Shown here one piece after another: positions 8,096-26,118 of a stretch of DNA of 64,000 nt (position 1 is the first letter of the stretch; each line of letters opens with the position of its first letter). Position numbers and translations under genes: made by a program. This DNA comes from Chloroflexaceae bacterium. GTDB taxonomy: Bacteria; Chloroflexota; Chloroflexia; Chloroflexales; Chloroflexaceae. Where the stretch lies: NCBI GenBank assembly GCA_034437375.1, contig DAOTUK010000064.1, forward strand, positions 604 through 64,603, written 5' to 3'. The notes under the pieces were generated by a model, which ran no database searches, was not told the origin of the DNA, and was given only the letters and a program-made list of their open reading frames with translations.

Positions 8096-9372
8096 ACCAT
8101 AGTTCCTCTCGTATCATTGGAAGGTTCTGTTTCTTCAGCCGGCGGCTCTGATAATACCACCGTCGCTACCCTATTTAGCACTCCCTTTGCAACTACAAAC
8201 GGGTATCGCGGTATGTGATAGAGCGGGCGTTTGGCTAATACCGCGCGGGCGCCTATCTCGCCCACCAGTTGTCTGAGCGTCAGGCGGGCCAACACTCTGA
8301 GGGAGCGCCCCCCCTTGCGCAACGCTATGCCGGGGAGCCGGCCGGGATAGCGCAAGAGCGACTTGAACCGCTTGTACTTCAGGAATTCCAGCCGAAAGAG
8401 TATCTGCTCAACAATCCGATCTGATTCTGCTTCAACCGCTTCCCACTGGGGCGAGCAATCATCACAATGGAGGCGTACCTTGTGGCGGAAGAATTTGTGA
8501 TGATAGGGGAAGGAGTACAGGCAAAAATCGCTGTATTTGAATGGGCTAAACCGATTGGGGGCAATGTCGAAATCCTGGTACGAGACAGGGCTCATCTCAA
8601 CTCCCAGGATGTCATCGGAATCTTCAACCACATGCATCTTGTCATAGTCCGGGCACGCAACCATGAGGTAGTCATAGTCAATGGAGCCAAACGTGGTATG
8701 CAAATGGCACGGATAAATCAAGAGCGGGTGCATGTGCAAGGCTCGCACCAGGATTCCCTCCTGTTCCACCCGCCAGTAGATGTGCGAGGGTCGTTTATTG
8801 AAGGTTGGCGAATCGGTGTAATATGATTCGGAAACCGGGTGCAGGTATTCCATGGTTATACGCATAAGCTCGCGTGGGGGCAATACCAGCGCCCCCTCTG
8901 GTGTGAGCGGATGGAGCGCTTGCAGGGCGGGGATAAACGTTTCGCGCACAACCCGCAGGCCGGGGCTCAGCACCACTCGTTTGCCCATTTTTGCAAGATG
9001 TAGCACATGGGCCAGTGAGCCATCCGAGAAGAGACTATCGGGCGAAAGGAAGATGAGTGCGGCATCGGCATGGTACGCTGCCCGTATAGCCAGCGAATGA
9101 CAGAATAACAACCCCTCAAAAGCGATGGTATTGGTTGTCTCTTCGGGAATTTCGACGATTTTCACGGGCACCATGGCCTTGAGCCGCGCAAAAGACGGTA
9201 CGTCCTGTATTCGTTCGATGTCGCTCGGCTTGGTATAGATTTTGAACAGCACGTCGTCATCGGGGCCAAAGGCCCCCAGGTTGCCGGGCGACAGCAGGTT
9301 GGGCAGGGCAAAGTTGAGAAACAAATCGCTATATGTTTTGCCCCAGAAAGCTATAATCAGGTGGAATCTCAT
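8092..9372 (-). CDS. Unknown-family protein, paralogue A (GT-A-like motifs; possible glycosyltransferase)
   Basis: Clear paralogue of the 11680-13062 gene. Shared blocks are FHLI..WG..Y.DLFLN.ALP..LSPGNL, IFL(S/T)PDS, PSH(I/L)YW...EGIL.R..H.HPL.IYP and V(V/I)(E/Q)DSD. The start at 9372 (MRFHLI) forms an ATGA overlap with the wzt stop. Confidence 0.6.
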   Translation of the reverse strand: MRFHLIIAFWGKTYSDLFLNFALPNLLSPGNLGAFGPDDDVLFKIYTKPSDIERIQDVPSFARLKAMVPVKIVEIPEETTNTIAFEGLLFCHSLAIRAAYHADAALIFLSPDSLFSDGSLAHVLHLAKMGKRVVLSPGLRVVRETFIPALQALHPLTPEGALVLPPRELMRITMEYLHPVSESYYTDSPTFNKRPSHIYWRVEQEGILVRALHMHPLLIYPCHLHTTFGSIDYDYLMVACPDYDKMHVVEDSDDILGVEMSPVSYQDFDIAPNRFSPFKYSDFCLYSFPYHHKFFRHKVRLHCDDCSPQWEAVEAESDRIVEQILFRLEFLKYKRFKSLLRYPGRLPGIALRKGGRSLRVLARLTLRQLVGEIGARAVLAKRPLYHIPRYPFVVAKGVLNRVATVVLSEPPAEETEPSNDTRGTMV

Positions 9373-10700
9373 ATAGTTGCCTCTGGTAATGGGTCTATAA
9401 ACTGTGTTTGCCACGCAAGATGTGGGCGGATAATCCCAAACTCGCCGCCGAAATACTCCTGGCTAATCTGCCCACTATCGTGAACATGAAACGAGACGGC
9501 ATAGTCTTGAAAGACTTGCACGTCTGCTTTTCCCCTGGCCAGAATAACAGACACACTATAGGTGCCGGTATTTAAAAAGTTCGCTGGAATACAACATACG
9601 GTTTCAAACATCCCAGGATTATGCGGTTTTCCTCCAAACGCATCTTCTGTTTTAGACACAGATTTGAGATTGGAGGACACAAACGCAATACTCCCCAGTT
9701 CATCTCGGAGCCAGATAGAGACGTACAGATGGGTACCTTCCTGCAAATTCCAGTAGGTAATGGAAACGTGTATATCTTCTGATATAGTCACCTCGGTAGA
9801 CGGGCCGCTTCTGCCGGTTTGGAGAATGCGCACAGCATGGAGACGGGCTATATCATCGCCTGGCGCATGCGCCATATCGGGCCAGACCATCTCGCCCCCG
9901 GCGGTCCGCACCATGCCGAGGTACTGCTGCACAACGGATGCCGTCTTGCCAATCGCCGCGACCTGGCCATTATTGAGCAACAGGGCCCGCTGGCACAGGT
10001 TGGTGATATTGCCCATACTATGCGAAACGAGGAGGACGGTTCGCCCCCCCTTACTCACTTCGGCCATCTTGCCCATACATTTTTTCTGAAACTCAATATC
10101 GCCAACGGCCAGGACTTCATCCACGATTAAAATATCTGGTTCCAGATGGGCGGCCACTGCAAACGCCAACCGTACATACATCCCGCTTGAATAGCGCTTG
10201 ACGGGTGTGTCAATAAACTTTTTGACCCCGGAGAATGCGACAATCTCATCAAATTTGCGGTCAATCTCCGCGCGGCTCATGCCAATGATGGCCCCATTCA
10301 TATAGATGTTTTCTCGCCCCGTCAAGTCCGGGTGAAAGCCGGTGCCAACCTCTATCATACTGCCAAGGCGCCCCTCGATAACTGCGCGACCGCTGGTTGG
10401 CTTGATGATACGCGCAAGAACTTTCAGGAGCGTAGATTTGCCGGCCCCGTTGCGGCCAATAATCCCGATAACCTCCCCTTGCTTTACTTCAAAGGAAACA
10501 TCGTTCAAAGCCCAGATAAGGTCATCGCTGGTCTGTCCATTCTGTTCTAGCCGCGCGGTATAGCGGAGATCTCGAAAATTCTTGAGCGGTTTCAGCATGA
10601 AATTTGCGATAACCCCAAGCGGGGTACGCGAAAATTCCTCCTTCAACCCGATGCGGTAGCATTTGGACATATTTTCAACACGAATAACAACGTCACTCAT
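9369..10700 (-). CDS. wzt: Polysaccharide-export ABC transporter ATP-binding protein with C-terminal extension (Wzt-type)
   Basis: Walker A GRNGAGKST, signature YSSGM, Walker B LIVDEVLAVGD, and H-loop VSHS. About 180 extra C-terminal residues (nt ~9372-9908) are beta-rich, as in Wzt C-terminal glycan-cap-binding domains. Confidence 0.9.
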   Translation of the reverse strand: MSDVVIRVENMSKCYRIGLKEEFSRTPLGVIANFMLKPLKNFRDLRYTARLEQNGQTSDDLIWALNDVSFEVKQGEVIGIIGRNGAGKSTLLKVLARIIKPTSGRAVIEGRLGSMIEVGTGFHPDLTGRENIYMNGAIIGMSRAEIDRKFDEIVAFSGVKKFIDTPVKRYSSGMYVRLAFAVAAHLEPDILIVDEVLAVGDIEFQKKCMGKMAEVSKGGRTVLLVSHSMGNITNLCQRALLLNNGQVAAIGKTASVVQQYLGMVRTAGGEMVWPDMAHAPGDDIARLHAVRILQTGRSGPSTEVTISEDIHVSITYWNLQEGTHLYVSIWLRDELGSIAFVSSNLKSVSKTEDAFGGKPHNPGMFETVCCIPANFLNTGTYSVSVILARGKADVQVFQDYAVSFHVHDSGQISQEYFGGEFGIIRPHLAWQTQFIDPLPEATI

Positions 10701-10703
10701 ACG

Positions 10704-11576
10704 TTACGATACATCCACAATAATACTTTCAAGCCGCTGAAAGACCAGAAACCCACTGACAAGCAGAATAATGGTGGTGATAGCTCCGATACCAATAAAA
10801 TCCCATGGCATCGGGTTGGTAGATAGAATGGCCGCGCGAAACCCTTCGATGATACCGACCATAGGATTGAGCGCATATATCGTGAGATACCGCTCAGGAA
10901 TAAGGGATGCGGGGTAGAAAACGGGCGAAACGTACATCAGCGCCATGGTAATAATGTTCAAGAGATAGCCTATGTCCCGATATTGCACCGAGGTGACGGC
11001 AACCCACATACCCAGGCCCAACGCTGCGCCCATAGCCATCAATATTAGCAATGGCAAGTAGATAATCAATGCATTTGGAACGATACGATACCAGACCATC
11101 ATCACAACGAGCAAGATCATTGCAATAAAAAAGTCTACCAATTTGCTCAGTAGAACAGATAGGGGCAAAATAATCCTTGGAAAGTATACTTTGCTAATGA
11201 GTCCCATTCCCGCGGCGAGACTATTGCTAACGCCACCAAGCGCCGAAGAAAAGAATGTCCAGGCGGTCAGGGCGGTATAGACAAAGATGGTAAAGGGTGT
11301 GCCTTCAGACCCGATGCGCAGCAGCATGCTAAAGACGATGGTGAAGATGATCATGGTTGCCAGGGGCCGCAGGATAGACCAGGCCGGCCCAAGAATAGTC
11401 TGGGTATACTGGGTTTTGAGATCACGCACGACCATCAGGTAGAGCAATGTGCGATAGTTCCATAGTTCGCCAAGGTTTGCTATCGTCCAGTGCGATGTGG
11501 GTTCAATAATTATTCGTGGTTTGGGAGATTCGTTCTCCCCGGACGGGTGTTCAATTGTAGGAGCGTTTGTTTTCAA
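10704..11576 (-). CDS. wzm: ABC-2 type polysaccharide-export permease (Wzm-type)
   Basis: LWNYRTLLYLMVVRDLKTQYTQTILGPAWSILRPL N-terminal signature. About 6 hydrophobic spans. It sits immediately upstream of wzt. Confidence 0.85.
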   Translation of the reverse strand: MKTNAPTIEHPSGENESPKPRIIIEPTSHWTIANLGELWNYRTLLYLMVVRDLKTQYTQTILGPAWSILRPLATMIIFTIVFSMLLRIGSEGTPFTIFVYTALTAWTFFSSALGGVSNSLAAGMGLISKVYFPRIILPLSVLLSKLVDFFIAMILLVVMMVWYRIVPNALIIYLPLLILMAMGAALGLGMWVAVTSVQYRDIGYLLNIITMALMYVSPVFYPASLIPERYLTIYALNPMVGIIEGFRAAILSTNPMPWDFIGIGAITTIILLVSGFLVFQRLESIIVDVS

Positions 11577-11679
11577 AAGAATATTTTCCCCTTGTTCTCT
11601 ACCTCAAACGAAACATTTTTCAGGGCTAAGATAGCCTCATTGCTGGCTATCTCATAACGTTGCCCTGGAAAAAAACGCT

Positions 11680-13062
11680 TTAGACAAGGGAATTAGAATC
11701 ATGATTGAATTGGATAACAATGTCGTTCATACATTCAGCCCCGCTTGTTTTTCTCGTACGGTTTGTGTTAAACTGCCGCAGCATAAACTGCCGCAGCATA
11801 AACCGCATATGAACGGGATACCGCCCTACAAAGTACCCCAGTCTTAGCAAAAGATGTCCACCCGTGATAAACCTTTGTCCCAAGTATATTAGCATATTAG
11901 CAGGTGTGAAGGGCGTGGCACTAAGATTATTGATAACATTTGTTAATAGATTATAGTTATCATTGATAATACCAAATTTATCAACAAAATCAATATCATC
12001 ATCTGGATTAAAATACGCAAGCCATTTATATTTGTATTGGATAAATAACCACAAATCAGAAAAACTACGTATTCGGTTGTTAGTTAGACGATCTATCTTG
12101 TTTATTACTTTATTTGAAGCTCTGATGGCATTTTTCCAATTGCCCGACTTTTTGCCGATATGAAGAGCAATATGGTGATTTGCGTAATAATGGTGTTGTT
12201 TGTTTGTATGATAATAGGCCCAGGCTATAACTCGTGCTAAATCAAAGTTGCTTATATCGCCAATATGTCGAGATTTATCCGTAATATCTACGCCGAAAGC
12301 CTCATCAGAGTCCTGAATAACATAGATACTCTCTATATTGGGACATGCTAACGCAATATAGTCATCGTCTATGGTAGACTTCGGTGATACATCTGTGCGT
12401 TGTGGGTATATCATCAACGGGTGGAGATGAAAGCATCGTGCGAGGATACCTTCCCCCTTAACAGGCCAGTACAAATGTGATGGCCAGGTACTCAAGTAAT
12501 CTGTTCCTAAAAAACACGCTTTGCTGTGTAGGTGGAGATGCTCCAATCCCAATTTCACCAACGAACCCGATGAGACTGAGATAGTTCTATCTTCTTGGGA
12601 AAAATATTTTTCTATCAAGGCCGGTACAAATGTTTCATGGGTCACTCGAATACCCGCAATCAAAACTACTCGGTAACCTTGCTCAGCGAGCTGTACAATG
12701 GTTGCAAAGGTTCCGTTAGACCAGACTGAATCGGGGGTCAGGAAAATTAACGTAGCTCCCTCTTTATTTGCTGCTTCAATAGCACGGATTTGATAGTTTG
12801 TCATCGTTTGTAAACGATCGAACGTTTCATCCTCTATAATGATTATTTCGGTAGTAATAATATCAGATACGCTATGAAACACTTCAGACGCTTGTATCTT
12901 TCTTGCGTCGTCGGCTGTCGTGTATATTTTATACACAGACCCTCGGCGGTTTTGGAAAACTGGTAGATTACCTGGTGATAGCTGGCAAGGAAGTGCAATA
13001 TTCAGAAAGAGATCAGTGTAAGCAGTTCCCCAGACAACTGTTATCAAATGGAATTGTATCAT
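11680..13062 (-). CDS. Unknown-family protein, paralogue B (GT-A-like motifs), strongly AT-rich gene
   Basis: Paralogue of the 8092-9372 gene, with the shared blocks listed there. I chose the start at MIQFHLI (13062) by homology with paralogue A. The track ORF extends to 13092. Bases 11941-12000 contain only 12 G+C of 60. Confidence 0.6.
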   Translation of the reverse strand: MIQFHLITVVWGTAYTDLFLNIALPCQLSPGNLPVFQNRRGSVYKIYTTADDARKIQASEVFHSVSDIITTEIIIIEDETFDRLQTMTNYQIRAIEAANKEGATLIFLTPDSVWSNGTFATIVQLAEQGYRVVLIAGIRVTHETFVPALIEKYFSQEDRTISVSSGSLVKLGLEHLHLHSKACFLGTDYLSTWPSHLYWPVKGEGILARCFHLHPLMIYPQRTDVSPKSTIDDDYIALACPNIESIYVIQDSDEAFGVDITDKSRHIGDISNFDLARVIAWAYYHTNKQHHYYANHHIALHIGKKSGNWKNAIRASNKVINKIDRLTNNRIRSFSDLWLFIQYKYKWLAYFNPDDDIDFVDKFGIINDNYNLLTNVINNLSATPFTPANMLIYLGQRFITGGHLLLRLGYFVGRYPVHMRFMLRQFMLRQFNTNRTRKTSGAECMNDIVIQFNHDSNSLV

Positions 13063-13424
13063 CAAGCAGGCTTCTTTCGCTATCCCATGCAAGATTTTAC
13101 AAAAAAGAGCATGTAACGTCTACGGTGGTGAGCGGTAGCGCACAAAGGCTTCAGTCGCTTGCGTGGATTTAAATTATTCTGTACAACGGTAAATACACTT
13201 TCAGACACCAACTTGCTCTTGGGGAGCATGTCTGAGAACCTCCATCCTGTTGCCAGGTCAACTAGTTTTGTCTATTCCTTCACCACATATCCCGCCGGAA
13301 CATTTGTCCAGGGGAGCGTCTTGGCGGCGTTGAAGCGCACCATAGGCGGGTAGCATGAGCATCGGGTCAAGCCGGGTTTCAAGGGTATTGTGCCAATATT
13401 GCCCCGTATACCCTTGCGATGTTT

Positions 13425-14087
13425 TTATTCAAAATAAATAAACTCGTAGTCGCCAGTATATCCAACACTATTATACAACCATATCCACTCGGCGGTGTCA
13501 AAGAAGGCCTCGGCGGTAAGGGCCCAGCATTGCAGGTTAAACAGTTCTAGCTCATTACGATAGCTTTCAACCATGACATATTTGTTTTTGCCGACGCGCT
13601 CAATTTCTTGCAGGGCGGTATGCAACTCGAAAAGACGCAGGTTGTGCAACGCGCCAAGCGAGATCACCAGGTCAAAGGAGTTGTCGCCCCAGGGGTAGCG
13701 ATCCTGCGCGCGGTAGCGCACCAGCGAGGGGCGGATGGCTTCTGGCGCGTCGCTCAGGCCGTGGCGCGAAATATCCATACCCACCACTTCGGCGTCGGGC
13801 AAGAGCTGGTGAAATTCGTAGAGCAGGTGCGCTTTGCCGCATCCCACATCCAATATCTTAGCATTCGGCGGAAGCTGGTAAACGTCAATGAAGCGTTCGG
13901 CGACCGGCTTCCAGCGTCCGTCGTAGCGATAGCCGCCATACCCATAGCGGCGGTCGCCATCCCAGTAGTCGTACTCGTATTCCCTGGCTTTTTGCATACA
14001 TTCGACTTTGTTGTCGTTCATACGCGCCAGGTAATCGCGGTTAGTCTTCTTGTGTAGCGGGGTGACAATATGGAGCAATCGGCCCAT
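13425..14087 (-). CDS. Class I SAM-dependent methyltransferase
   Basis: ILDVGCGKAHLLYEF (motif I), VVGMDIS, and FDLVISLGALHNL. Confidence 0.75.
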   Translation of the reverse strand: MGRLLHIVTPLHKKTNRDYLARMNDNKVECMQKAREYEYDYWDGDRRYGYGGYRYDGRWKPVAERFIDVYQLPPNAKILDVGCGKAHLLYEFHQLLPDAEVVGMDISRHGLSDAPEAIRPSLVRYRAQDRYPWGDNSFDLVISLGALHNLRLFELHTALQEIERVGKNKYVMVESYRNELELFNLQCWALTAEAFFDTAEWIWLYNSVGYTGDYEFIYFE

Positions 14088-14110: not shown

Positions 14111-15103
14111 CTAGGGTTTATGCTGATAGGTCAGGGGTTGTTGCACAATCGCGTCCCAGTAGTGTTCAACCCACGCGACAACCTCAGCCAGGCCCGTTTC
14201 CATCGTCATCTGGGGTTGCCAGCCAAGCTCGCGGCGGGCCCGGCTTGAGTCTATCACGTATGCGGCATCCTGTCCAGGACGCTCTCCCACAACTTTTGTT
14301 GCCGCTTCAAAGGGCTTGCCCATACGGGCGCAGATAAGCTGCACTACGTCGCGCACGGCGATACCCTCATCGGGCGAGAGGTGGTAGATGTTCCCAACCG
14401 TGCCGCGCTCCAGGACGGCCAGTTCGCCCCGCGACACATCGCGGATATGGATATACGATTTCACCGCCACGCCGCCGCCGTGCAATTCAATCGTCTGGCC
14501 CTGTTTGATGTAGATAACCGAACGCGGAATAATCTTGAATAATTGTTGGCGTGGGCCATACACATTGGTGGCCCGTATGGTCAGGAGCGGAAACCCATAT
14601 TGTCTGGCATAGGTGTGCAGCAGCATATCGGCGGCCGCTTTGGAGGCGGCGTAGGGGGTGCTTGGGTTGAGCGGTGTTTCTTCGGTCACGGTGCCCACGC
14701 AGTTGCCATAGGCCTCTGGCGAGGAGATGTGCAGGTAGCGTTGCAGATAGTCCTGCTTGCGCAGGTGGTTGACGAGCAGCGCCAACGCGACGGTGTTGGT
14801 TTGAAACCAGTGTTCGGGGTGTTCCCAACTGGGGGCTACTTCGCTCTGGGCCGCAAAGTTGACGATATACTGCGGCCGTTCGCTATCGAGCATATCGAGC
14901 AACGCGGGCATGTCGTTGTTCATATCGGCCTGGACGTAGCGGTAGCGCGAGAGGTCGGAGCGGGTTTTGTATTTCAGAAAGAGGTCGGATCGTTCGGGCG
15001 AACGGCTCACGCCGATAACCTCGTACTCCGGGTTATCCAGCAGCAGGTCTACAAAGTCCTGCCCCGAAAACGAGTTGGCTCCAAGGACAACTATTCTGGT
15101 CAT
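14111..15103 (-). CDS. Extended SDR, RmlB (dTDP-glucose 4,6-dehydratase)-like sugar-nucleotide enzyme
   Basis: PYAASKAAADMLLHTYARQYGFPLLTIRATNVYGPRQ and GGGVAVKSYIHIRD closely follow the RmlB pattern. The RmlB TDE triad reads SPE here (LHISSPEAYG), so I leave the exact activity (dehydratase or epimerase/reductase) unassigned. Confidence 0.7.
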   Translation of the reverse strand: MTRIVVLGANSFSGQDFVDLLLDNPEYEVIGVSRSPERSDLFLKYKTRSDLSRYRYVQADMNNDMPALLDMLDSERPQYIVNFAAQSEVAPSWEHPEHWFQTNTVALALLVNHLRKQDYLQRYLHISSPEAYGNCVGTVTEETPLNPSTPYAASKAAADMLLHTYARQYGFPLLTIRATNVYGPRQQLFKIIPRSVIYIKQGQTIELHGGGVAVKSYIHIRDVSRGELAVLERGTVGNIYHLSPDEGIAVRDVVQLICARMGKPFEAATKVVGERPGQDAAYVIDSSRARRELGWQPQMTMETGLAEVVAWVEHYWDAIVQQPLTYQHKP

Positions 15104-15141: not shown

Positions 15142-16512
15142 TTATGGCTGTTCTGGCGGCTGATGGTCATGCACAAAGAAAGCCTGTCCGTGCCACCCAT
15201 AGGGAAGGAAGGGCGAATAGGAGAAGCGTTCCTGTGCGCCAAACACCTCCGCGAAGGCGCGACGCTCACCCATAGCCGGGTTGGCGCGGTTGCAGTTGTA
15301 ATCATCAAACAGCAGCACACATCCATCTTGCAGCAAGTCTTGCTTGAGCAATTGCTCAAGCACGGTAACGGTTGAGGTATACATATCGCAGTCAACGTGG
15401 ATCAGCGCGGCTTTGCCGGCCGGCAGCGCGGTCGCCAGCGTCTCCTCAAAGAAACCTTTGGTAATGTGTATCTGTTCGGGGGGTACTATCTTCGAGAGTA
15501 CGCGGAAAATCCTGTCGGGCATTTCCTCTTCAAGCGCCATAGAACCCTGGAACCACACCTTGTTGATGCGAACTTCGTAGCTTGCCTGGTCAACAGGCGA
15601 GGTGATCTCTGGCAAGCCTTCAAAGGAGTCATACAGGTAGAGCGCGCCGGGATAGCGGAATTGCTGCATCAGCGTGGCCATCAGGCGGGCGGTATATCCG
15701 CGCAGGGTACCAAATTCCAGGATGTGGCCCTGTATACCGGTGCCGGTGATGTACTCGATACAGCGGCGAAATGCTTCACCATACACAACGTCGGCACGCG
15801 GCCGAGTATACCCCAGGGGGGGCAATAGGGTGGGATCTATCTGTTCTAGCATAGTGGGGGGTAGCCGTTCCAGCGTCGCGGGGGGTAGCTGTTCCAGCGT
15901 CGCGGGGGAGAGGCGTTCCAACGCCGTCGGGGGTAGCCGTTCCAACGCCGTCGGGGGTAGCTGTTCCAGGATTGTGGGGGGAAGCTGTTCCAGCGTCGCG
16001 GGCGAAAGTTGTTCCAATGTTTCGGGGGGCAATTGCGCAAGCACATCGGGGGCGAGATGCACGAGAATATCCGGGTGCAGGCGCACAATAATCTCCGGGA
16101 GCAATTGTTCTACCACGGCGGGGGTCAGGCGGGTCAGTACGTCGGGCGAAAGTTGTTCCAACGTTTCGAGGGAGAGCCGTTCCAGCACCGTGGGCGAAAG
16201 CTGTTCCAGCGTCGCGGGGGGTAGCTGTTCCAACACGGCGGGGGAGAGCCGTTCCAATGCCGTGGGCGAGAGCTGTTCCAACACGGCGGGCTCCAATTGT
16301 TCGAGCACGGATGGATTGAACCGTTCCAACACCACTGGAACAAGACATGCGACGATGTCCGGGGGCAATTGTTCGAGCAAGGCCGGGTCAAGGTGTCTGG
16401 TTACCTGGGGATCGAGAAAAGCCAGCAGAGGGGGCCCCAGACGGTGCCAGGCCGTTATCGCCTGGTGTCGAACCATGCGGCGAAGTACGCTGGCTGTTTG
16501 TTGTTGCTTCAT
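15142..16512 (-). CDS. Octapeptide-repeat stalk fused to TylF-type O-methyltransferase domain
   Basis: The C-terminal ~220 aa carry ILEFGTLRGYT, DSFEGLP, KGFFEETL, VDCDMYTST and FDDY (TylF / macrocin-O-methyltransferase family pattern). Residues ~25-232 are 26 tandem 8-residue units. Confidence 0.8.
   Translation of the reverse strand: MKQQQTASVLRRMVRHQAITAWHRLGPPLLAFLDPQVTRHLDPALLEQLPPDIVACLVPVVLERFNPSVLEQLEPAVLEQLSPTALERLSPAVLEQLPPATLEQLSPTVLERLSLETLEQLSPDVLTRLTPAVVEQLLPEIIVRLHPDILVHLAPDVLAQLPPETLEQLSPATLEQLPPTILEQLPPTALERLPPTALERLSPATLEQLPPATLERLPPTMLEQIDPTLLPPLGYTRPRADVVYGEAFRRCIEYITGTGIQGHILEFGTLRGYTARLMATLMQQFRYPGALYLYDSFEGLPEITSPVDQASYEVRINKVWFQGSMALEEEMPDRIFRVLSKIVPPEQIHITKGFFEETLATALPAGKAALIHVDCDMYTSTVTVLEQLLKQDLLQDGCVLLFDDYNCNRANPAMGERRAFAEVFGAQERFSYSPFLPYGWHGQAFFVHDHQPPEQP
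15817..16440 (-). repeat. Coding tandem repeat: 26 x 24 nt (consensus L-S/P-P-x-T/V-L-E-Q/R)
   Basis: The repeat reads LGPPLLAF LDPQVTRH LDPALLEQ LPPDIVAC LVPVVLER FNPSVLEQ LEPAVLEQ LSPTALER LSPAVLEQ LPPATLEQ LSPTVLER LSLETLEQ LSPDVLTR LTPAVVEQ LLPEIIVR LHPDILVH LAPDVLAQ LPPETLEQ LSPATLEQ LPPTILEQ LPPTALER LPPTALER LSPATLEQ LPPATLER LPPTMLEQ IDPTLLPP. The DNA shows matching near-identical 24-nt units (ctgttccagcgtcgcggggggtag...). Confidence 0.9.
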
Positions 16513-16540
16513 ATAGTCGTGTCCTCGTTTCCTGCGTATA

Positions 16541-17593
16541 TCAAACGATGCGCTGTAAGGCTACACGGGCTTTTTGCAACTGCTGCGCTTTGCGTGCTTC
16601 CTGATCGGTGGCCGTGTCGGCAAAGCGGCGGCGGGCGCTGCCGGCGGGCAAAAAATCGTTCAGCATAATGCAGCACCACTTCACCTGGTAGACCGGCAAC
16701 AGCCGACGGAACCGCGCACGATGGGCGGGCGGGTCGGTGGTATATTCGGCGGCTACCTCGGTTACCTGGTCAACGTAGGCCATGGGCACGGGCACGGCTG
16801 GCTGGCAAAAGAAATCGCCTACCAGTTTAGCCGGGTCGTCCCATCCGGCATATTCAAAATCAAGAAAACGTAATTGCTGGTCGCTGTCGGACAGGATGGC
16901 GTTGTGAAAGCCAAAATCGGAGGGCGACAGACAGCGATCCGTGGGGGATACCTCGGTATCGAGCGCCAGGCCTGGCGAGGGTACCTCGCTGGCTACCGCG
17001 GCATGCACCGTTTGCCATACCGCCTGTAAGTCGTGCTGGATGAAGCGCACAGCGTCGCGGTTGATAGGCTGTGTATCGTCAATGCGTTCAAGCCGTTGCA
17101 AGCGTCGTTCGACCGTGGCCAGGTGGTCGGCAATCGTAAAGCACGCCTCGGAGGCCGGCGGCAGTTGGTGGGCCTGGGGGTGGTGGCGGTGCTGGTTGAG
17201 GGCGCGATAGAACGCGAGGGCTTGCGATACGGCGGCGTCGCCTACCTCGGCGGGTTCGAGCCGCCGCCCCGCGACAAACTTGTACAATCCAAGCGCGTGG
17301 TCGCAGTCGTAGGCCAGCGGTTGGGGGATGCAGCGTATACCACGTTCCCAGGCAAAGCTGGCAAAGGCAAACTCGGTGCCCAGGCGGTCGCGGGGGTCGT
17401 CCGGGTGTTGGAAGTAGGCTTTGAGCAGGGCCGTACCGCTGTCGCTCTCTACCCGAAAGACGCGATTGTTCGCCCCCCCGCTCAGCGGAACGAGCGCCAC
17501 CGGGCCCCGAAAACCGGCCTGGTGCATCATGCGGGACGCCGCCTCGGTTATCGGCTCGTCAGCTATTGTGATTGTCGGGTCATCTGTCATCAT
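16541..17593 (-). CDS. APH/choline-kinase-fold phosphotransferase (small-molecule or sugar kinase)
   Basis: NNRVFRVE...ALLKAY (N-lobe), catalytic-loop-like SPSDFGFHN, and metal-binding DFEYAGWDDP. ATGA overlap with the upstream HAD gene at 17590-17593. Confidence 0.7.
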   Translation of the reverse strand: MMTDDPTITIADEPITEAASRMMHQAGFRGPVALVPLSGGANNRVFRVESDSGTALLKAYFQHPDDPRDRLGTEFAFASFAWERGIRCIPQPLAYDCDHALGLYKFVAGRRLEPAEVGDAAVSQALAFYRALNQHRHHPQAHQLPPASEACFTIADHLATVERRLQRLERIDDTQPINRDAVRFIQHDLQAVWQTVHAAVASEVPSPGLALDTEVSPTDRCLSPSDFGFHNAILSDSDQQLRFLDFEYAGWDDPAKLVGDFFCQPAVPVPMAYVDQVTEVAAEYTTDPPAHRARFRRLLPVYQVKWCCIMLNDFLPAGSARRRFADTATDQEARKAQQLQKARVALQRIV

Positions 17594-18192
17594 AGCAAGT
17601 ACGCAGCAAGCTCTGTCCAGGCCGTAAAGCGCCGGAACCCGTGTTCGTCGCCGGTGTTCTGGTTGGGGTCAAAGAGTAAGCGCTCTACGGTAGGCGGAAA
17701 GGCCGCTTCGGCCAGAAATTCGGGCAAGTCATCAATAAAATGGGTACACCCCACGCTGGCGATACGCTGGATTTTCTCCTGTTTGGTTAATTCAAAAAAT
17801 ACCTGTTCGGACGACAAACCAATGTGGGCCGGGTCGAAAAACCCGTAGTGTTCGAGCCACCCGCGGGCGGACTGGTGCAGGTCGAAAGCGGGGCCCCGAA
17901 AGGGATGGCGTGTCTTGTGGCTGATAATGCACACGGCAACCCCCTGCTGCTGGCAGCGCAGAAAGAAATCTATCACACCGGGGAAGGGGGCCGCCTCCTG
18001 CATACGCGGGCCATAGACATAGCCTTGCATTGCAGTCCAGGTGTCTTCCTGTCCACACTGGCGCAGATAGTCGCGCACGGCCCCTTTGCTTGCGGGTAGC
18101 TCCGGCGGAATGTGGTTTTGCTCCAGCGCAACCTGGTGAAACAGGGTATCGTAGCAAACGATCGTATTGTCAAAGTCAACGCCAATATGCAT
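17590..18192 (-). CDS. HAD-superfamily hydrolase (phosphatase fold)
   Basis: The N-terminal MHIGVDFDNTIV contains the DxDxT nucleophile motif. CIISHKT matches motif II, and FIDDLPEF is a motif IV-like acidic site. Confidence 0.7.
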   Translation of the reverse strand: MHIGVDFDNTIVCYDTLFHQVALEQNHIPPELPASKGAVRDYLRQCGQEDTWTAMQGYVYGPRMQEAAPFPGVIDFFLRCQQQGVAVCIISHKTRHPFRGPAFDLHQSARGWLEHYGFFDPAHIGLSSEQVFFELTKQEKIQRIASVGCTHFIDDLPEFLAEAAFPPTVERLLFDPNQNTGDEHGFRRFTAWTELAAYLL

Positions 18193-18205: not shown

Positions 18206-19246
18206 CTATTCCAGGGTCATATCAATGATGGGGCGGGCTACCTTGCCGGCTTCCAGATCATCGAGGGCGGCGTTAATCTCGCTCAGGCGGTAGGTCTGGG
18301 GCATCAATACGTCAAAGTTGAATTTGCCAGCCTCCATCAACGTACAGTAGCGCGGGTAGTCGCGGTCGGGCACACTATCGCCGCCCCACGTGCCAAGCAG
18401 TTGCTTACCCTGGTTAAACTGTTGCGGGTTCAGCTCCACCTGTTCGCCATGGTGGGCGTTGCCAATGATAACCGCGGCCCCGCCCTGGCTCCGCACGCTC
18501 AAGAGGGCCTGGGTCATTACCTGGGGGCGGCCGCTGGCTTCAATGGCGCGGTCTACCCCGCCCGGACACATACGCTTGATAGCCTCAACCGGGTCTTCCT
18601 CTCCCGCGTTGATAGTATGGGTTGCCCCCATCTGGCGGGCCAGGTCAAGTTTGGCGGGCAATATATCTACGGCGATAATCGGGATACAGCCGGAGACTGC
18701 GGCGGCCGCAATGGCACACAGCCCTACCCCGCCGCTCCCAAAAATAGCTATGCTCTGGCCGGGGCGGGCCTGGGCGGTATTGAACACGGCCCCAACCCCC
18801 GTTGGCACCGCGCACCCAAGCAGGGCCGCCTGGCGCATGGGGAAGGCTTCTGGGAGCGGGGTCAACCGGTTCTCGCTGATTACGGCATAGCGGCTAAAGG
18901 TGGTAATTCCTCCGGCGTTGACGGTCGTTCCATTCCACTGGTAGGTAGTGCCCGGCACATTCATACCGCTGCCCTTAATCCACGAGAGGATGACCCGATC
19001 ACCCGGTTTGACCTTTGTCACGCCCGGCCCAATATCGTACACCGTGCCGCTACCCTCGTGGCCCAGACAGTGGGGCAGGAAGGGATCGTTGCCGCGGTGG
19101 CCCCGCGCTTCCAGCACCTGCGTATGGCACACGCCACTATAGGCAATGTCAACCACTACCTGGCCAGGCTTCAGGGTCGGCATCTCTAGCTCATCCAGTA
19201 CGAGCGGTTTGCCCAATTCAACCAGTATTGCTGCGGTTGTCTTCAT
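18206..19246 (-). CDS. Zinc-dependent alcohol dehydrogenase (MDR family)
   Basis: GVCHTQV...GHEGSGTV (catalytic Zn ligands), GDRVILSW, and the GSGGVGLCAI Rossmann motif. I chose the start at MKTTAAIL (19246), preceded by GGAGG. The track ORF extends to 19318. Confidence 0.85.
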   Translation of the reverse strand: MKTTAAILVELGKPLVLDELEMPTLKPGQVVVDIAYSGVCHTQVLEARGHRGNDPFLPHCLGHEGSGTVYDIGPGVTKVKPGDRVILSWIKGSGMNVPGTTYQWNGTTVNAGGITTFSRYAVISENRLTPLPEAFPMRQAALLGCAVPTGVGAVFNTAQARPGQSIAIFGSGGVGLCAIAAAAVSGCIPIIAVDILPAKLDLARQMGATHTINAGEEDPVEAIKRMCPGGVDRAIEASGRPQVMTQALLSVRSQGGAAVIIGNAHHGEQVELNPQQFNQGKQLLGTWGGDSVPDRDYPRYCTLMEAGKFNFDVLMPQTYRLSEINAALDDLEAGKVARPIIDMTLE

Positions 19247-19271
19247 CAGAGCGCCTCCATAAGAACAATTA

Positions 19272-20204
19272 TTAAAGGAAGTGTTGAAATATCCGCGAAA
19301 CGGTGTCGGTAATATCACGGGCGGTCAACCCCGTTTGTTCGCGGGCATAGGCTTGCTCGCCGGCTTCGTGTATGAAGCTGTCCGGGGTGCCTATGCGACA
19401 CAGGTAGGTATCATCGGGGTAGGGATGATCAGATAACCATTCAGCGACGCTACCACCAAGCCCGCCCAGAATGGAATGCTCTTCAATCGTCGCTACCATG
19501 CGATACCGCTTAAATATATCCATGAGGAACCTATCATCCAACGGCTTGACGGTATGCATACTCACCACCTCGACGGAAATATTCCTTTGCGTCAGTTCTG
19601 CGGCCGCTTCCATCGCCACGGGCAACATCGTGCCGGTGCTGAGCAAACAGCCATCGGTGCCGGTCTGCATCACGATACCCTGGCCAATTTTGAAATCGGG
19701 CGGCTGTTGATGTACCACCGGCTCGCCCTTTTTGCCCAGACGCAGGTAGACCGGGCCGTTGTGGGCTATGGCGGCTCGCAAGGCCAACCGCACTTCCACC
19801 GCATCAGCGGGACACACTACCGTCATATTCGGTAAAATACGCATCATAGCAATATCTTCGCAGGCATGGTGGGTTGCGCCAAGCGAGGCGTAGGAGAGCC
19901 CGGCCCCGACGCCGACAATAACAACCGGGACGTTGTGGTAGCAGACATCTATGCGTATCTGCTCGTAGCAGCGGGTGGTGATAAAGGGGGTGATGGTATA
20001 GGCCACCGGGCGCAAGCCCGACAGGGCCATCCCCGCGGCTACCCCTAGCATGTTCGCTTCAGCGACGCCACAGTTAAAGAAGCGTTCTCCAAACGCCGCT
20101 TTGTAGGAGTCGAAGAGCCGATTACCTATATCGCCAGAGAGCATGACAATCCGGGGGTCTTCGGCGGCCAGGGCGTTTATTTCGGCAGCAAATGCGTTTC
20201 TCAT
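19272..20204 (-). CDS. Transketolase, C-terminal (pyrimidine-binding) subunit
   Basis: FFNCGVAEANMLGVAAGMALSGLRPVAYTITPF and GATHHACEDIAMMRILPNM. 4-nt overlap with the N-terminal subunit gene. Confidence 0.85.
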   Translation of the reverse strand: MRNAFAAEINALAAEDPRIVMLSGDIGNRLFDSYKAAFGERFFNCGVAEANMLGVAAGMALSGLRPVAYTITPFITTRCYEQIRIDVCYHNVPVVIVGVGAGLSYASLGATHHACEDIAMMRILPNMTVVCPADAVEVRLALRAAIAHNGPVYLRLGKKGEPVVHQQPPDFKIGQGIVMQTGTDGCLLSTGTMLPVAMEAAAELTQRNISVEVVSMHTVKPLDDRFLMDIFKRYRMVATIEEHSILGGLGGSVAEWLSDHPYPDDTYLCRIGTPDSFIHEAGEQAYAREQTGLTARDITDTVSRIFQHFL

Positions 20205-21043
20205 ACTAACCCAAGCTCCATTCTGGCTTGCGCTACTTCTTCGGCGGTTGGAATACGATAGTGCCAGTTGTTATCATCTTCCATAAACGAGATGCCTTTA
20301 CCTTTGACCGTGTTGGCGATAACGACCACCGGTTTTCCGCCGCTATCGGGAACCGTACGCAAGACCTGCACCAGAGCGGCCATATCGTGCCCATCTACCT
20401 CGTGGGTGTTCCACCCAAAGGCTTCCCACTTCTGGCGCAGGGGCGAGAGCGCCAGCACTTCATTGCTGCGCCCGGTGGCTTGCCATTTGTTGTAGTCTAC
20501 AAAGGCCATCACAGTATCTACCTGGTGCGCGGCGGTCATCATAGCCGCCTCCCAGACCGACCCTTCGTTACATTCGCCATCGCTCATCACCACAAACACG
20601 CGGTAGGCTTGCTGCTGGATGCGTGCGGCCAGGGCCATCCCCAGGCCCAACGGTAGCCCGTGCCCCAGTGAGCCGGTAGAGGCCTCGATACCCGGCGCAC
20701 AGCCCAGGCTCGGATGTTCGGCCAACGCGGTGCCATCCTGGTTGAAGGTGTCGAGCAGGTCGGGCGAGAAGAAGCCGCGATAGGCCAGCGTTGCGTATAG
20801 GGCGGTTGCGGCATGCCCCTTGCTGAGAATACAGCGGTCGCGCTCCGGGGCGTCTGGTTGGGCCGGGTCAATACGGAGCGCCGACCAGTACAGCGCAACC
20901 AGTATATCTACACAAGACAATGCCGAACCGAGATGGGGGGTACCGGCGGCATGGGACATCTCAACCAGTTTGCCCCGAATTGTCCGGGCGATAGCGTCCA
21001 GTTCGTCCATATCAATGGGCTCATTGGAGGAGTGGTTGTGCAT
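20201..21043 (-). CDS. Transketolase, N-terminal (ThDP pyrophosphate-binding) subunit
   Basis: GTPHLGSALSCVDILVALYW, SKGHAATALYATLA, GSLGHGLPLGLGMALAA, and the ThDP motif VVMSDGECNEGSVWEA. Confidence 0.85.
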   Translation of the reverse strand: MHNHSSNEPIDMDELDAIARTIRGKLVEMSHAAGTPHLGSALSCVDILVALYWSALRIDPAQPDAPERDRCILSKGHAATALYATLAYRGFFSPDLLDTFNQDGTALAEHPSLGCAPGIEASTGSLGHGLPLGLGMALAARIQQQAYRVFVVMSDGECNEGSVWEAAMMTAAHQVDTVMAFVDYNKWQATGRSNEVLALSPLRQKWEAFGWNTHEVDGHDMAALVQVLRTVPDSGGKPVVVIANTVKGKGISFMEDDNNWHYRIPTAEEVAQARMELGLV

Positions 21044-21073
21044 AGTAGAACCTCGTTCCGTGTCTTTCTTGTT

Positions 21074-22072
21074 TTATTTCAAACCAAGCGATTGCATCAT
21101 TTTGATGTTGTAGTAGCGTATGTTATCCATCGGGTCGGGTATTTTGCCGCTCTGAAAGGCCGCAACCAGATCGCGTACGGCATCTTCAACCGTATGGCGT
21201 GGCGCAAATTGCAGTTCTTGCTCAAGTTTCTTCGATGAAATGTGATAGGAGCGGTTGTCATCGGTAGGGGTTGTGACGATTTCTACATCATCACCCACCA
21301 CGCCCCGCACTAGATTGGCAATGTCGGCAATACGCAAATTATGGTAGCCGGCGTTGTAGATTTTGCCGTCAATGGCTTCATCTGGCCATTCGAGCGTTTT
21401 GATGTACAGGTCGGTCATATCTTCTATGTGGATGTTGGGCCGCATCTGCTGGCCGCCAAATACTTTGATGGTGCGGTTGTTGACGGCGTGGTTGGTCAAG
21501 ATGTTGACGGAGAGGTCAAGCCGCAGGCGGGGCGAGTAGCCGCAGACGGTGGCGGGACGCAACACCAGCACCACAAAGCCGGGTTCGCGGGCCTCAAGCA
21601 GCACATCCTCGCAGAGCGCTTTGTATTTGGAATAGTCGGTCAGGGGGGTACGTTCTAGCTCTTCGGTCACATCTGGCTCGTCTTTAATGCCGTAGACGCT
21701 TGACGAGGAGGCGTAGATAAAGCGGCGCACGCCGCTCTTTTTCGAGACATCAACCAGGTCAAGAAAGGCATCATAGTTGATGGTCTTGCCCAGTTCCGGG
21801 TCGAGCTCAAAGCTCGGATCGTTTGAGATACACGCCAGGTGGATGACCGCATCACAACCAGGGATGTGCTGTTCCAGCAAGGCGCGGTCGCGTATATCGC
21901 CTTTGATTTGTTCGAGGTTGGGGTGATCTTTCACGGCGTCCAGCACATCGTCGCCGTAGATATACAGATCGAGCACTTTTACGCGGTAGCCGTTGTTAAG
22001 CAATTTGGGGATAAGGACGGCTCCGACATACCCGGCCCCGCCGGTGACAAAAACGCTTTGTATTTCACTCAT
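21074..22072 (-). CDS. NAD-dependent epimerase/dehydratase (extended SDR)
   Basis: VFVTGGAGYVGAVLIPKLL Rossmann motif, ASSSSVYG, and the YSKYK (YxxxK) motif. Confidence 0.8.
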   Translation of the reverse strand: MSEIQSVFVTGGAGYVGAVLIPKLLNNGYRVKVLDLYIYGDDVLDAVKDHPNLEQIKGDIRDRALLEQHIPGCDAVIHLACISNDPSFELDPELGKTINYDAFLDLVDVSKKSGVRRFIYASSSSVYGIKDEPDVTEELERTPLTDYSKYKALCEDVLLEAREPGFVVLVLRPATVCGYSPRLRLDLSVNILTNHAVNNRTIKVFGGQQMRPNIHIEDMTDLYIKTLEWPDEAIDGKIYNAGYHNLRIADIANLVRGVVGDDVEIVTTPTDDNRSYHISSKKLEQELQFAPRHTVEDAVRDLVAAFQSGKIPDPMDNIRYYNIKMMQSLGLK

Positions 22073-22100
22073 AGCAGTTATTTATGCTCCTGTTTCAACT

Positions 22101-22793
22101 TTATGCTTCATGGGCAACCAGATTCAGCCGGGCGCGTATCAGGTGGGCCGCGTCCAGCAGGCTTGCAGCGGTGTGAAAGGTATCGCTGTCTGTTGGGGGC
22201 GGCTCCGTCGTAAGTAAGAACCCCGGCACACCCGCCGCCGCGCCGGCCTGCACATCGCGCAGCGAATCGCCCACCATAAACGAATCGTCAAGCGCAATGT
22301 TCCAATCCTGCCGGGCCTGTGTCACCATACCCGGCGCGGGCTTGCGACAGGAACACACCTGACGGTACAGTCGTACGCTGGCCTCTGGTAGATGCGGACA
22401 GTAGTATAACACATCCAGGATAACCCCTTCAAGGGCCAGGGTACGCACCAGTGCGTTGTGAATGTCGAGTAAATCGGCTTCGGTCAACAACCCCCGCGCA
22501 ATGCCCGACTGGTTTGTTACCACAATGAGGAAGAAGTGTTCTTGCAATAGGCGCAGCGCCGGTACTACCCCCGGCAACAGGCGCAGGTCGGCCGCTCGCC
22601 GCAGATAGTGGACATCTTCGACCAGAACCCCGTCTCGATCAAGAAACATGGCCCGTCTGGGGCCATCGGGTCTGGATGGGGTTGGCGCTGGTGTTGCTAC
22701 GGCCAGGCGGCTATGACTGGGGAGGTGCCGATACCGGTCGGTGGTGCAACCCGTGGGGAACATAGTCGTATGGGCGTGGATGTCCGGGTTCAT
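22101..22793 (-). CDS. gmhB: D-glycero-D-manno-heptose 1,7-bisphosphate phosphatase (HAD IIIA)
   Basis: FLDRDGVLVED (DxDG nucleophile), VVTNQSGIARG, CSCRKPAPGM, and MVGDSLRDVQAG. The start is uncertain. 22793 forms an ATGA overlap with the gmhA stop. 22649 (MFLDRDG) and the track start 22832 are alternatives. Confidence 0.8.
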   Translation of the reverse strand: MNPDIHAHTTMFPTGCTTDRYRHLPSHSRLAVATPAPTPSRPDGPRRAMFLDRDGVLVEDVHYLRRAADLRLLPGVVPALRLLQEHFFLIVVTNQSGIARGLLTEADLLDIHNALVRTLALEGVILDVLYYCPHLPEASVRLYRQVCSCRKPAPGMVTQARQDWNIALDDSFMVGDSLRDVQAGAAAGVPGFLLTTEPPPTDSDTFHTAASLLDAAHLIRARLNLVAHEA

Positions 22794-23380
22794 TGCGCTG
22801 CTCGTAGTACTGCGGCACAGTCGGTCATACAATGGGTCAGGGCGTGGTGGGCCAGCTCCACACAGCCATATTCCTGGGCCGGTACATAAAAGTTCAGATG
22901 GCCCATATGGCGCAGGGGGTTGTCGGGTTTGAAGCCAGAGAACGTGATAATGTGACAGTTGCGGGCCTGACAGACGCGCACAGTGCGGAGGATATTGTTT
23001 GATTTGCCAGAGCTGCTAATGGCTATCAAGACATCGCCCGGCGCGGCCCATAGCTCCGCTAGACGTTCAAAGGCGAACTCGTACCCATAGTCGTTCGAGA
23101 GGGTGGTGAGCAGGGATTGATCGTAAAAGACCATGCTTGGGATGCCAACCGCGTGGCTTAAATCGTTATGGGTGTGGCTGGCAATCGCGGCGCTGCCACC
23201 GTTACCCACCAGCAGCACTTTGCTGGCCCCCGTACCCGCGGACAACAGTATCTCAACGGCGCGGTGGGTGCCGTCATCAAGCGATAGATTGGCCCCATCA
23301 CTATCGGTCACTTGCACATGCAGGATGCTTTCTGCGAGGGTGCGAACGTAGGATGTGGCACTGATAGGTGGTATAGACAC
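22790..23380 (-). CDS. gmhA: Phosphoheptose (sedoheptulose-7-phosphate) isomerase, SIS domain
   Basis: VLLVGNGGSAAIASH, DVLIAISSSGKSNNIL, and the HIITFSG pattern typical of GmhA. Confidence 0.85.
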   Translation of the reverse strand: MSIPPISATSYVRTLAESILHVQVTDSDGANLSLDDGTHRAVEILLSAGTGASKVLLVGNGGSAAIASHTHNDLSHAVGIPSMVFYDQSLLTTLSNDYGYEFAFERLAELWAAPGDVLIAISSSGKSNNILRTVRVCQARNCHIITFSGFKPDNPLRHMGHLNFYVPAQEYGCVELAHHALTHCMTDCAAVLRAAQ

Positions 23381-23397
23381 GTTTTTCTTCCTGGTAT

Positions 23398-24924: not shown

Positions 24925-24950
24925 ATTGTATCGGGTTCCTTGTGGGTAGG

Positions 24951-25964: not shown

Positions 25965-26118
25965 TGCTTTGTTCTCCTTACCTTCCAGGTTTCGTTTGCA
26001 ACCACCCCTGATTGTGCAGCAAACGAGCAGTATATAACCTCTCCCCCCACCGCCGATGGTATGGTACTGATTGTACTCAATGTGCCATTTTATTGCAAGG
26101 CGGCGCGAGGTGGGGAGG

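Follow-up and report, generated by a model that had tools for sequence, protein, structure and literature searches.

In the 64,000-nt stretch of Chloroflexaceae DNA analysed here (contig DAOTUK010000064.1; hereafter the window, to which all position numbers refer), three consecutive genes of one long minus-strand operon, encoding a HAD-superfamily hydrolase, an APH/choline-kinase-fold kinase and a TylF-type O-methyltransferase (MT) carried on a repeat stalk, are best explained as serving two different jobs. On comparative sequence evidence, the HAD protein and the kinase are enzymes of a sugar-precursor pathway that act in sequence on a small molecule, and they belong to a widely conserved biosynthetic cassette. 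The MT is an optional accessory of this cassette and would act on the assembled glycan as a cap enzyme, with the stalk serving as a spacer. We place the probability of this explanation as a whole at about 0.45. A sequence-only reading of the same DNA had treated the three genes as a split counterpart of WbdD, the E. coli O9a protein that combines a kinase, a methyltransferase and a coiled-coil ruler and produces a methyl-phosphate cap read by the Wzt C-terminal domain. The likeness to WbdD logic turned out to be real, but comparative genomics separated the three genes, so that they no longer form one module. Genes were called from open reading frames (ORFs), Pfam and NCBIfam, and the three ORFs were found intact and consecutive on the minus strand, as that reading had them:

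15142-16512, minus strand: TylF-type O-methyltransferase with N-terminal stalk, 456 aa (ORF, Pfam TylF, AlphaFold2 (AF2) model, Foldseek)
15142-15813, minus strand: MT catalytic domain, aa 234-456 (alignment to NovP, invariant Asp residues)
15814-16413, minus strand: array of 25 eight-residue repeats, aa 34-233, predicted alpha-helical screw (Tandem Repeats Finder (TRF), register, alignment to 9ZEM, AF2)
16414-16512, minus strand: basic N-terminal helix of the MT, aa 1-33, candidate membrane- or partner-binding element (AF2)
16541-17593, minus strand: APH/choline-kinase-fold kinase, 350 aa (Pfam APH, invariant residues, co-occurrence)
17590-18192, minus strand: HAD-superfamily hydrolase, 200 aa (motifs, ATGA overlap, adjacency, fusions)

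The kinase matched the Pfam APH model (PF01636) above threshold (E = 1.1e-11, 45.5 bits, cut-off 23.2), with Choline_kinase scoring sub-threshold, and residues D226, H230, N231 and D245, covering the catalytic loop and the Mg-binding Asp, as well as the motifs SDFGFHN and DFEYAGWDDP were invariant in 34 homologues. Every Pfam HAD model stayed below threshold for the hydrolase (HAD, E = 8e-4, 20.3 bits, cut-off 27), though its assignment is upheld by motifs I-IV (D6-x-D8-x-T10, S91, K140 and D154-D155), which were invariant in 24 homologues. The stop codon of the HAD gene and the start codon of the kinase gene overlap as ATGA, in agreement with the coupling described earlier. Searches of the PDB with the single HAD sequence and with its family profile returned no sequence relative, and those with the kinase (single sequence and a 34-sequence profile, WbdD chains included) returned only choline kinases (E ~0.003).

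The kinase family is large (6344 matches among 8000 scored candidates, the best 120 at 50-70% identity), and 524 stretches in GTDB species-representative genomes encode a relative. Counts of kinase loci refer to the best 80 of these 524 stretches together with locus L001 (81 loci), searched by tblastn with every window protein. The 80 best loci derived from Planctomycetota, Cyanobacteria (Microcoleus), Acidobacteriota, Chloroflexota, Verrucomicrobiota, Armatimonadota, several proteobacterial classes and others, with kinase identities across these phyla of 44-57%, mostly 50-57%. The HAD gene was present in 79 of the 81 loci and lay directly upstream of the kinase gene, on the same strand, in 77 of these 79. 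True HAD-kinase fusion proteins were also identified (P0111, P0137 and P0145), which fits consecutive small-molecule steps rather than the capping and editing of a polymer end, and the role once suggested for the HAD enzyme, to edit or remove a terminal phosphate, is disfavoured. A further apparent fusion, joining kinase, coiled coil and TylF-type MT (P0020, 650 aa), was rejected as a Rosetta stone. All-frame translation of L001, the 2.7-Mb contig that encodes it, located the conserved kinase C-terminus (LLWPVYQLKWCCIVLNDFL) and a stop codon in another frame (P0020 region 9990-12000), and the alcohol dehydrogenase (ADH) gene is also split in this contig. P0020 is an indel artefact or a pseudogene; indel errors in long-read metagenome-assembled genomes can create false domain fusions. 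It was the sole fusion linking kinase to MT, and a coupling of these two proteins by fusion or co-inheritance is not supported.

The obligate HAD-kinase pair forms part of a cassette of approximately ten genes, conserved at 45-75% identity over more than ten phyla. In the window, the remaining members, including several short-chain dehydrogenases/reductases (SDRs) and S-adenosylmethionine (SAM)-dependent methyltransferases, are as follows:

13425-14087, minus strand: SAM-dependent methyltransferase MT31, cassette member (Pfam, NCBIfam; in 63 of 81 kinase loci)
14111-15103, minus strand: dTDP-glucose-4,6-dehydratase-like SDR, cassette member (Pfam, NCBIfam; in 66 of 81 kinase loci)
18206-26195, minus strand: Zn-ADH, split transketolase (C and N halves), GalE-like SDR, GmhB, GmhA, HldE-like protein, UXS/GalE-like SDR (NCBIfam, Pfam, co-occurrence)
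7418-8095, minus strand: SAM-dependent methyltransferase MT25 (Methyltransf_25/11), frequent cassette member (Pfam; in 28 of 81 kinase loci)

The other counts were 61 and 57 loci for the C and N halves of the transketolase, 60 for ADH, 53 for the GalE-like SDR and 43 for the HldE-like protein. In the kinase loci, MT31 and the dehydratase-like SDR reached identities of up to 76%, and MT25 was 35-73% identical, mostly at least 58%. The order of the cassette genes was the same in L001, L162, L163 and L169; GmhA and GmhB were present only in some cassette loci. NCBIfam held no equivalog for any cassette member, only generic heptose-pathway and SDR similarities, and literature searches on the cassette, on split transketolases in polysaccharide loci and on TylF-type terminators found nothing. 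The cassette probably makes an undescribed nucleotide sugar, and its product is probably an activated, deoxy, methylated, higher-carbon sugar. The TylF-type MT, Wzt, Wzm and two Pfam-less paralogues of the window (see below) were each detected in 3 of the 81 kinase loci. Seventy-eight kinase-HAD loci have no TylF-type MT at all, most have no Wzm or Wzt within 10 kb, and most loci of the TylF clade and of the wider TylF family have no kinase, all of which argues against kinase, MT and HAD protein as parts of one terminator.

The MT was matched by Pfam TylF (PF05711) at E = 1.8e-20 (73.8 bits, cut-off 23, aa 247-409) and by Methyltransf_24 at 2.5e-10, and the motifs that had prompted its TylF-type assignment (DSFEGLP, KGFFEETL, VDCDMYTST and FDDY) are all present. 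Its catalytic domain was aligned to NovP residues 92-263, with HVDCDMY pairing with RMDGDLY, FDDY with VDDY and EFGTLRG with ETGVWRG; the approximately 90-residue N-terminal region of NovP that precedes the aligned part has no counterpart in the MT. The signature Asp residues of TylF, MycF and NovP (DxD ... DD), which bind metal and supply the general base, and the SAM-binding motif are conserved, and D374, D376, D403 and D404 were invariant across 36 homologues. The AF2 model of the whole protein had a mean predicted local distance difference test (pLDDT) score of 85.3. Foldseek placed NovP first (E = 8e-9, template-modelling (TM) score 0.65, target-normalised), followed by MycF, SpnH and CalS11, a ranking dominated by the MT domain and not by the stalk.

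Homologues of the MT were rare, only 70 being found among 5.8 billion proteins searched, and MT and cassette occur together in five independent contexts. In the window and in L001, L162 and L163 (L163 being from the window's organism), the MT gene is flanked by those of the kinase and the dehydratase; in L169 its neighbours are kinase and MT31, and in L164 it lies beside wzm-wzt. In L170 and L171, it stands in glycan loci without the kinase. The combination of the cassette with the TylF-type MT, a Pfam-less protein of approximately 440 aa, Wzm and a Wzt with a C-terminal domain is repeated in L164 and L169, and the Pfam-less protein resembled glycosyltransferases of the GT-A fold where this was checked (tblastn, L164). 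A metagenome scan with the MT alignment yielded mostly distant TylF relatives (<45% identity) and was informative only for the adjacency of wzm, wzt and MT genes. In at least five metagenomic loci (L098, L102, L123, L127 and L156), wzm and a long wzt (380-471 aa) are followed directly by a distant TylF-type MT gene.

The stalk consists of 25 gapless, in-register units of eight residues (aa 34-233) with the consensus [S/P]-P-[A/T]-[V/T]-L-E-[Q/R]-L, in which Pro occupies position 2 in 24 units, Leu position 5 in 21 and Leu position 8 in 23. The repeat array described by the sequence-only reading was therefore recovered, at a length of 200 rather than 208 residues. The periodicity is far above chance, and at the DNA level TRF detected a 24-bp period with 48- and 72-bp super-periods (15843-16333). 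A Pfam Phage_TAC_7 match on the stalk was discarded as a repeat-driven artefact with no significant stretch. A crude scan of the stalk for heptad-type segments found none, in line with the earlier view that this Pro-initiated repeat is not a coiled coil. The stalk aligned, gapless and in register over 14 units (E = 1.2e-11), with HeliScrew4 (PDB 9ZEM), a designed 8-mer alpha-helical screw with a crystal structure (bioRxiv 10.64898/2025.12.04.691947). This fold calls for Pro at N1, a hydrophobic core and an N-cap that is small and polar (bioRxiv 10.64898/2025.12.04.691947); the window repeat obeys these rules, with Pro at N1, S/T/D/P at the N-cap and a hydrophobic core pair. Such screws are right-handed superhelices of 2.5-4 units per turn; at a pitch of about 1 nm, 25 units would by rough estimate form a rod 6-10 nm long. 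The AF2 model contained one helix of 4-7 residues per unit (pLDDT ~70-95), and the stalk is thus predicted to adopt an alpha-helical screw fold. Ahead of it, AF2 placed a low-confidence helix (aa 2-33) with a net charge of +4.

A search with the stalk alone in 1.84 billion representative proteins returned 483 matches at E≤1e-3. The repeat is not confined to glycan systems: many of the proteins that contain it are very large (1000-4500 aa) and functionally unrelated; among them are an eCIS-core/deaminase toxin, a PHD-finger protein, an RNase T fusion and a protein with an ALTTAQ-repeat annotation (P0230-P0377). Its presence in unrelated proteins indicates a generic structural module that is not specific to glycan enzymes. 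The preprint lists a single natural helical screw in the PDB, 7QLR (bioRxiv 10.64898/2025.12.04.691947), and natural repeats of this kind may be far commoner than that one example implies. In a near-identical assembly of the same population, the MT is 488 aa long and has four more units (one 3-unit duplication and one extra), and two other metagenomic contigs end inside the repeat array (repeats compared in L163, L166, L167 and L168). The exact repeat number is therefore assembly-dependent and may reflect polymorphism or assembly collapse. The difference between 456 and 488 aa as evidence for the tuning of a ruler was set aside on the same grounds, as a possible assembly effect.

The N-termini of the MT homologues were diverse. 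A short class has an extension of approximately 20-57 residues; P0003 and P0004 carry the same 8-mer repeat in approximately 13 and 10 units; others have 130-240 N-terminal residues with a TPR annotation or heptad-rich segments. Six proteins (P0014, P0033, P0039, P0043, P0051 and P0054) have, N-terminal to the MT, a GT-A-like domain of approximately 340 residues that is homologous to the two Pfam-less window proteins, followed in most of these fusions by a heptad-rich linker.

The three genes lie within a co-directional minus-strand block that runs from approximately 26.2 kb down to 2.2 kb (ORFs, Pfam and NCBIfam). The block starts with a UXS/GalE-like SDR, an HldE-like nucleotidyltransferase joined to a PfkB domain, GmhA, GmhB, a GalE-like SDR, the split transketolase and Zn-ADH. 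It continues with the HAD protein, the kinase, the TylF-type MT, the dTDP-glucose-4,6-dehydratase-like SDR, a SAM-dependent methyltransferase, a 470-aa Pfam-less protein, Wzm and Wzt, and it ends with the 440-aa paralogue of the Pfam-less protein, another SAM-dependent methyltransferase, an RmlD-like reductase, a 395-aa methyltransferase, for which a PDB sequence search was uninformative, and three family 2 glycosyltransferases (GT2). This is an ABC-transporter-dependent glycan locus, whose export genes and flanking paralogues are the following:

8092-9414, minus strand: GT-A-like protein of a Pfam-less family, 440 aa, paralogue 1 (29% identity to paralogue 2)
9369-11576, minus strand: Wzt (443 aa, 9369-10700) and Wzm ABC-transporter pair (Pfam ABC_tran, NCBIfam Wzt/TagH-like)
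11680-13092, minus strand: GT-A-like protein, 470 aa, paralogue 2, in a low-GC island (AF2, Foldseek)

Wzm was identified from homologues in related loci annotated as ABC2_membrane. Wzt does have the extra C-terminal part attributed to it, approximately 170 residues, which matched Pfam Wzt_C below threshold (E = 7.3e-5, 23.2 bits, cut-off 30.4). The Wzt start as predicted shares 46 nt (9369-9414) with the end of the 440-aa gene upstream, and the true start may be situated further downstream.

The two paralogues flanking wzm-wzt had no Pfam match, and no CAZy assignment was found for them. The AF2 model of the 470-aa protein had a mean pLDDT of 81.8 (>90 over residues 11-340), and nearly all of its top Foldseek matches were GT-A glycosyltransferases, the few others being nucleotide-binding folds (E ~1e-5, with TM-scores of only 0.2-0.3). 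D121 (invariant) and D261-S262-D263 (nearly invariant, ≥90%) are candidate GT-A-like motifs. The family is small (40 matches), with fusions in some members to MT-like domains, TylF-type or other, or to membrane segments at the C-terminus, and, judged from the modelled structure, the two paralogues would represent a new Pfam-less GT-A-like family. A trough in GC content (0.37-0.46 versus ~0.58-0.62 around it) extends over 11680-13600 and covers the 470-aa gene and the intergenic region; the gene itself has a GC content of 0.37-0.43 against ~0.6 around it, and that of the 440-aa paralogue is near-normal. The trough over one paralogue suggests its recent horizontal acquisition.

In the explanation that we favour, the HAD enzyme would remove the distal phosphate of a sugar phosphate, following the logic of MupP/AmgK/MurU, and the kinase would phosphorylate the anomeric carbon. 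The resulting sugar 1-phosphate would be passed to the nucleotidyltransferase domain for activation, and the activated sugar would be tailored by the dehydratase-like SDR, the other SDRs, the methyltransferases and possibly the thiamine diphosphate-dependent enzyme. The TylF-type MT would most likely O-methylate a sugar residue after its transfer to the undecaprenyl-linked glycan. Its action at the polymer level is indicated by the homologues that carry GT-A-like, coiled-coil or TPR modules N-terminal to the MT domain, by the distant TylF-type MTs encoded beside wzm and long wzt genes, and by the closest solved relatives: NovP, MycF and SpnH methylate sugars already attached to an acceptor. 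Among the possible targets, we favour the non-reducing end, where methylation would give a methyl cap like that made by WbdD of E. coli O8; that this MT makes such a cap is a tentative assignment, to which we give somewhat less than an even chance. The stalk would serve as a rigid spacer between the basic N-terminal helix and the catalytic domain, taking the place of the coiled coils and TPR regions of the homologues, and may determine how far the capping site lies from the membrane or polymerase. The stronger proposal, that the MT is the chain terminator and that the 25 (or 29) units of its stalk are a molecular ruler setting polymer length, is unlikely in our estimation.

Several observations weigh against this explanation. 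The MT gene is placed mid-cassette in the window, L001, L162 and L169, a position that also fits an enzyme acting at the nucleotide-sugar level, and three other methyltransferases of the locus could make the cap. The Wzt_C match, as stated, is sub-threshold, and a PDB sequence search with the Wzt C-domain found no match to solved Wzt carbohydrate-binding modules (CBMs). Moreover, similar Wzt C-domains were detected in cassette loci that contain no TylF-type MT within 10 kb (L002, 49%; L077, 33%), indicating that the signal read by Wzt need not be a methyl group added by a TylF-type enzyme. The stalk is patchy across the family: the MT domains nearest to that of the window (64% identity) are stalk-less, and L169, otherwise an equivalent locus, is served by a stalk-less MT of 271 aa, so MT function does not require the stalk. 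Amphipathicity of the N-terminal helix is only moderate (hydrophobic moment 0.2-0.44), and no glycan genes could be recognised in the short flanks of the coiled-coil MT homologues in L172 and L173.

The alternative that survives best, though we regard it as rather unlikely, is that the MT is a precursor-tailoring enzyme acting on a nucleoside diphosphate (NDP)-sugar and that the stalk, as a scaffold or an aid to solubility, has no part in measuring length. In four independent lineages the MT gene is inserted with the kinase on one side and the dehydratase or MT31 on the other; this placement and the way the MT clade travels with the cassette agree with such a role, as does the dispensability of the stalk in close relatives. 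CalS11, one of the structural neighbours, is a TylF-family enzyme that acts on TDP-rhamnose, and this fold match speaks, by analogy, for the precursor role and against ours. A soluble NDP-sugar enzyme would, however, hardly account for the fusions with GT-A-like domains and heptad linkers or with TPR and coiled-coil regions, nor for the distant TylF-type MTs encoded beside wzm-wzt, and the window MT lacks the N-terminal lid of the small-molecule TylF enzymes.

Still less probable, in our judgement, is that the cassette sugar itself is the terminating signal, added once by a GT-A-like protein and read by the Wzt C-domain, in which case the TylF-type MT would only decorate that residue or internal residues. 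The terminal Kdo of Klebsiella O12 and O4 offers a parallel, and terminal-glycose caps are an established mode (PMC11231755). Related Wzt C-domains accompany the cassette regardless of a TylF-type MT (L002, L077 and L164, tblastn), and Pfam weakly flags Wzt_C in the Wzt of L169. Members of the GT-A-like family are found alongside the cassette in L013, L024, L043 and L164, and the family is also fused to MT domains. The informative loci amount to a handful, however, the locus also has three GT2 genes, and the cassette sugar may be the repeating unit rather than a terminal residue.

The split WbdD-like terminator, in which the kinase would phosphorylate the terminal sugar, the MT methylate that phosphate, the HAD enzyme edit it and the stalk measure length, draws on the adjacency, common orientation and partial translational coupling of the genes, on the presence of Wzm and an extended Wzt, and on the precedent of methyl-phosphate terminators built from unrelated kinase/MT pairs (K. 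pneumoniae O7 versus O3; PMC11231755), but the distribution and fusion data given above, the action of TylF-type enzymes on sugar hydroxyls and not on phosphate, and the absence of detectable similarity to WbdD make it very improbable.

Outside the minus-strand block, the window contains further genes that may relate to the glycan:

26330-27400, plus strand: WecA-like initiating phosphotransferase (NCBIfam, Pfam)
26330-31057, plus strand: segment with an FAD oxidoreductase together with the WecA-like and Wzy_C genes (NCBIfam, Pfam)
28463-31057, plus strand: 864-aa Wzy_C/O-antigen-ligase-like protein (NCBIfam, Pfam)

The 864-aa Wzy_C protein adjoins the WecA-like gene and is divergent from the minus-strand block; in view of its presence, the exported glycan may be ligated to an extramembrane lipid or protein acceptor, as in S-layer O-glycosylation. 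Large minus-strand genes at 41588-58245 encode a 2018-aa FG-GAP repeat protein, a 1399-aa adenylate-cyclase/AAA/TPR protein and a 1658-aa histidine kinase with six GAF domains. An Rfam scan of the whole window detected no RNA family and no tRNA.

To judge from its sequence, the window's TylF-type enzyme, a presumed glycan O-methyltransferase, joins its catalytic domain to a natural helical-screw stalk, a new architectural variant among spacer-bearing glycan-modifying enzymes; it is plausible that it terminates chains with a methyl cap, using a spacer other than a coiled coil. Should the MT be a terminator, TylF-type sugar O-methyltransferases would join the repertoire of glycan chain capping, the spacer in the termination of polymerisation would not need to be a coiled coil, an extendable 8-residue screw being sufficient, and polysaccharide length could be controlled in an easily engineered way. 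If the ruler reading were also true, it would provide the first assigned biological function of the helical-screw fold. The HAD-kinase pair, for its part, marks the approximately 10-gene cassette in hundreds of species, including Planctomycetota, Microcoleus, Dehalococcoidia and Kuenenia, and the cassette is a well-defined biochemical target.

Among known systems, WbdD of E. coli O9a and K. pneumoniae O3 unites kinase, MT and coiled-coil ruler, and WbdD of O8/O5 adds methyl only. Common to WbdD systems and the window locus are the ABC-transporter-dependent pathway, a modifying MT whose spacer is long, regular and non-catalytic, and the extra C-terminal domain of Wzt; homologues of the window MT do carry coiled coils. 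The window locus differs in that its MT is TylF-type (PF05711, a metal-dependent sugar O-methyltransferase) and not a class I MT of the WbdD kind; a search of PDB sequences with it returned, besides the stalk match 9ZEM, only NovP, SpnH and MycF, and no WbdD MT. No relation to the WbdD kinase was detected for the window kinase, which is a precursor-cassette enzyme not inherited together with the MT. In place of a coiled coil, the window MT has an 8-residue helical-screw repeat as its spacer, N-terminal to the catalytic domain, and the termination chemistry of the window system is a proposed one.

The antibiotic enzymes TylF, MycF, NovP, SpnH and CalS11 have the same catalytic domain as the window MT, including the SAM motifs and HxDxDxY ... 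DDY (Foldseek probability 1.0, 19-22% identity), and TylF-type enzymes such as NovP and MycF methylate sugar hydroxyls via a metal-bound diol. The window MT, in contrast, has no N-terminal lid (~60-90 residues), bears a 200-residue stalk, forms its own clade and is encoded in a polysaccharide locus. HeliScrew4 and the stalk have in common the 8-residue period, Pro at N1, a small polar or Pro N-cap and two hydrophobic core positions, and the natural relatives of HeliScrew4 include the Pfam ALTTAQ repeat. The window stalk is natural and of other composition (LExL core), and the similarity is convergent or at the level of pattern, not one of homology.

Characterised terminators are organised as GT/coiled coil/terminator or TPR/coiled coil/terminator, with a Wzt CBM in all of them, and in WbbB (Klebsiella O12) and ORF6 of K. 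pneumoniae O7 the terminator, a coiled coil and the polymerase GTs form one protein (PMC11231755). The six fusions of a GT-A-like domain with a TylF-type MT share this layout, whereas the window encodes its MT and its GT-A-like proteins as separate polypeptides, and enzymatic roles for this uncharacterised GT-A-like family are predictions. For the other job, the nearest model is the series formed by the HAD phosphatase MupP, the APH-fold anomeric kinase AmgK and the nucleotidyltransferase MurU (PMC5371407). The window pair is likened to it by logic, not by sequence, and is embedded among a transketolase, ADH and a dehydratase. As in MupP/AmgK/MurU and in HldE/GmhB, a HAD enzyme, a kinase (APH-fold in AmgK as well) and a nucleotidyltransferase would lead in series from a sugar omega-phosphate to an NDP-sugar.

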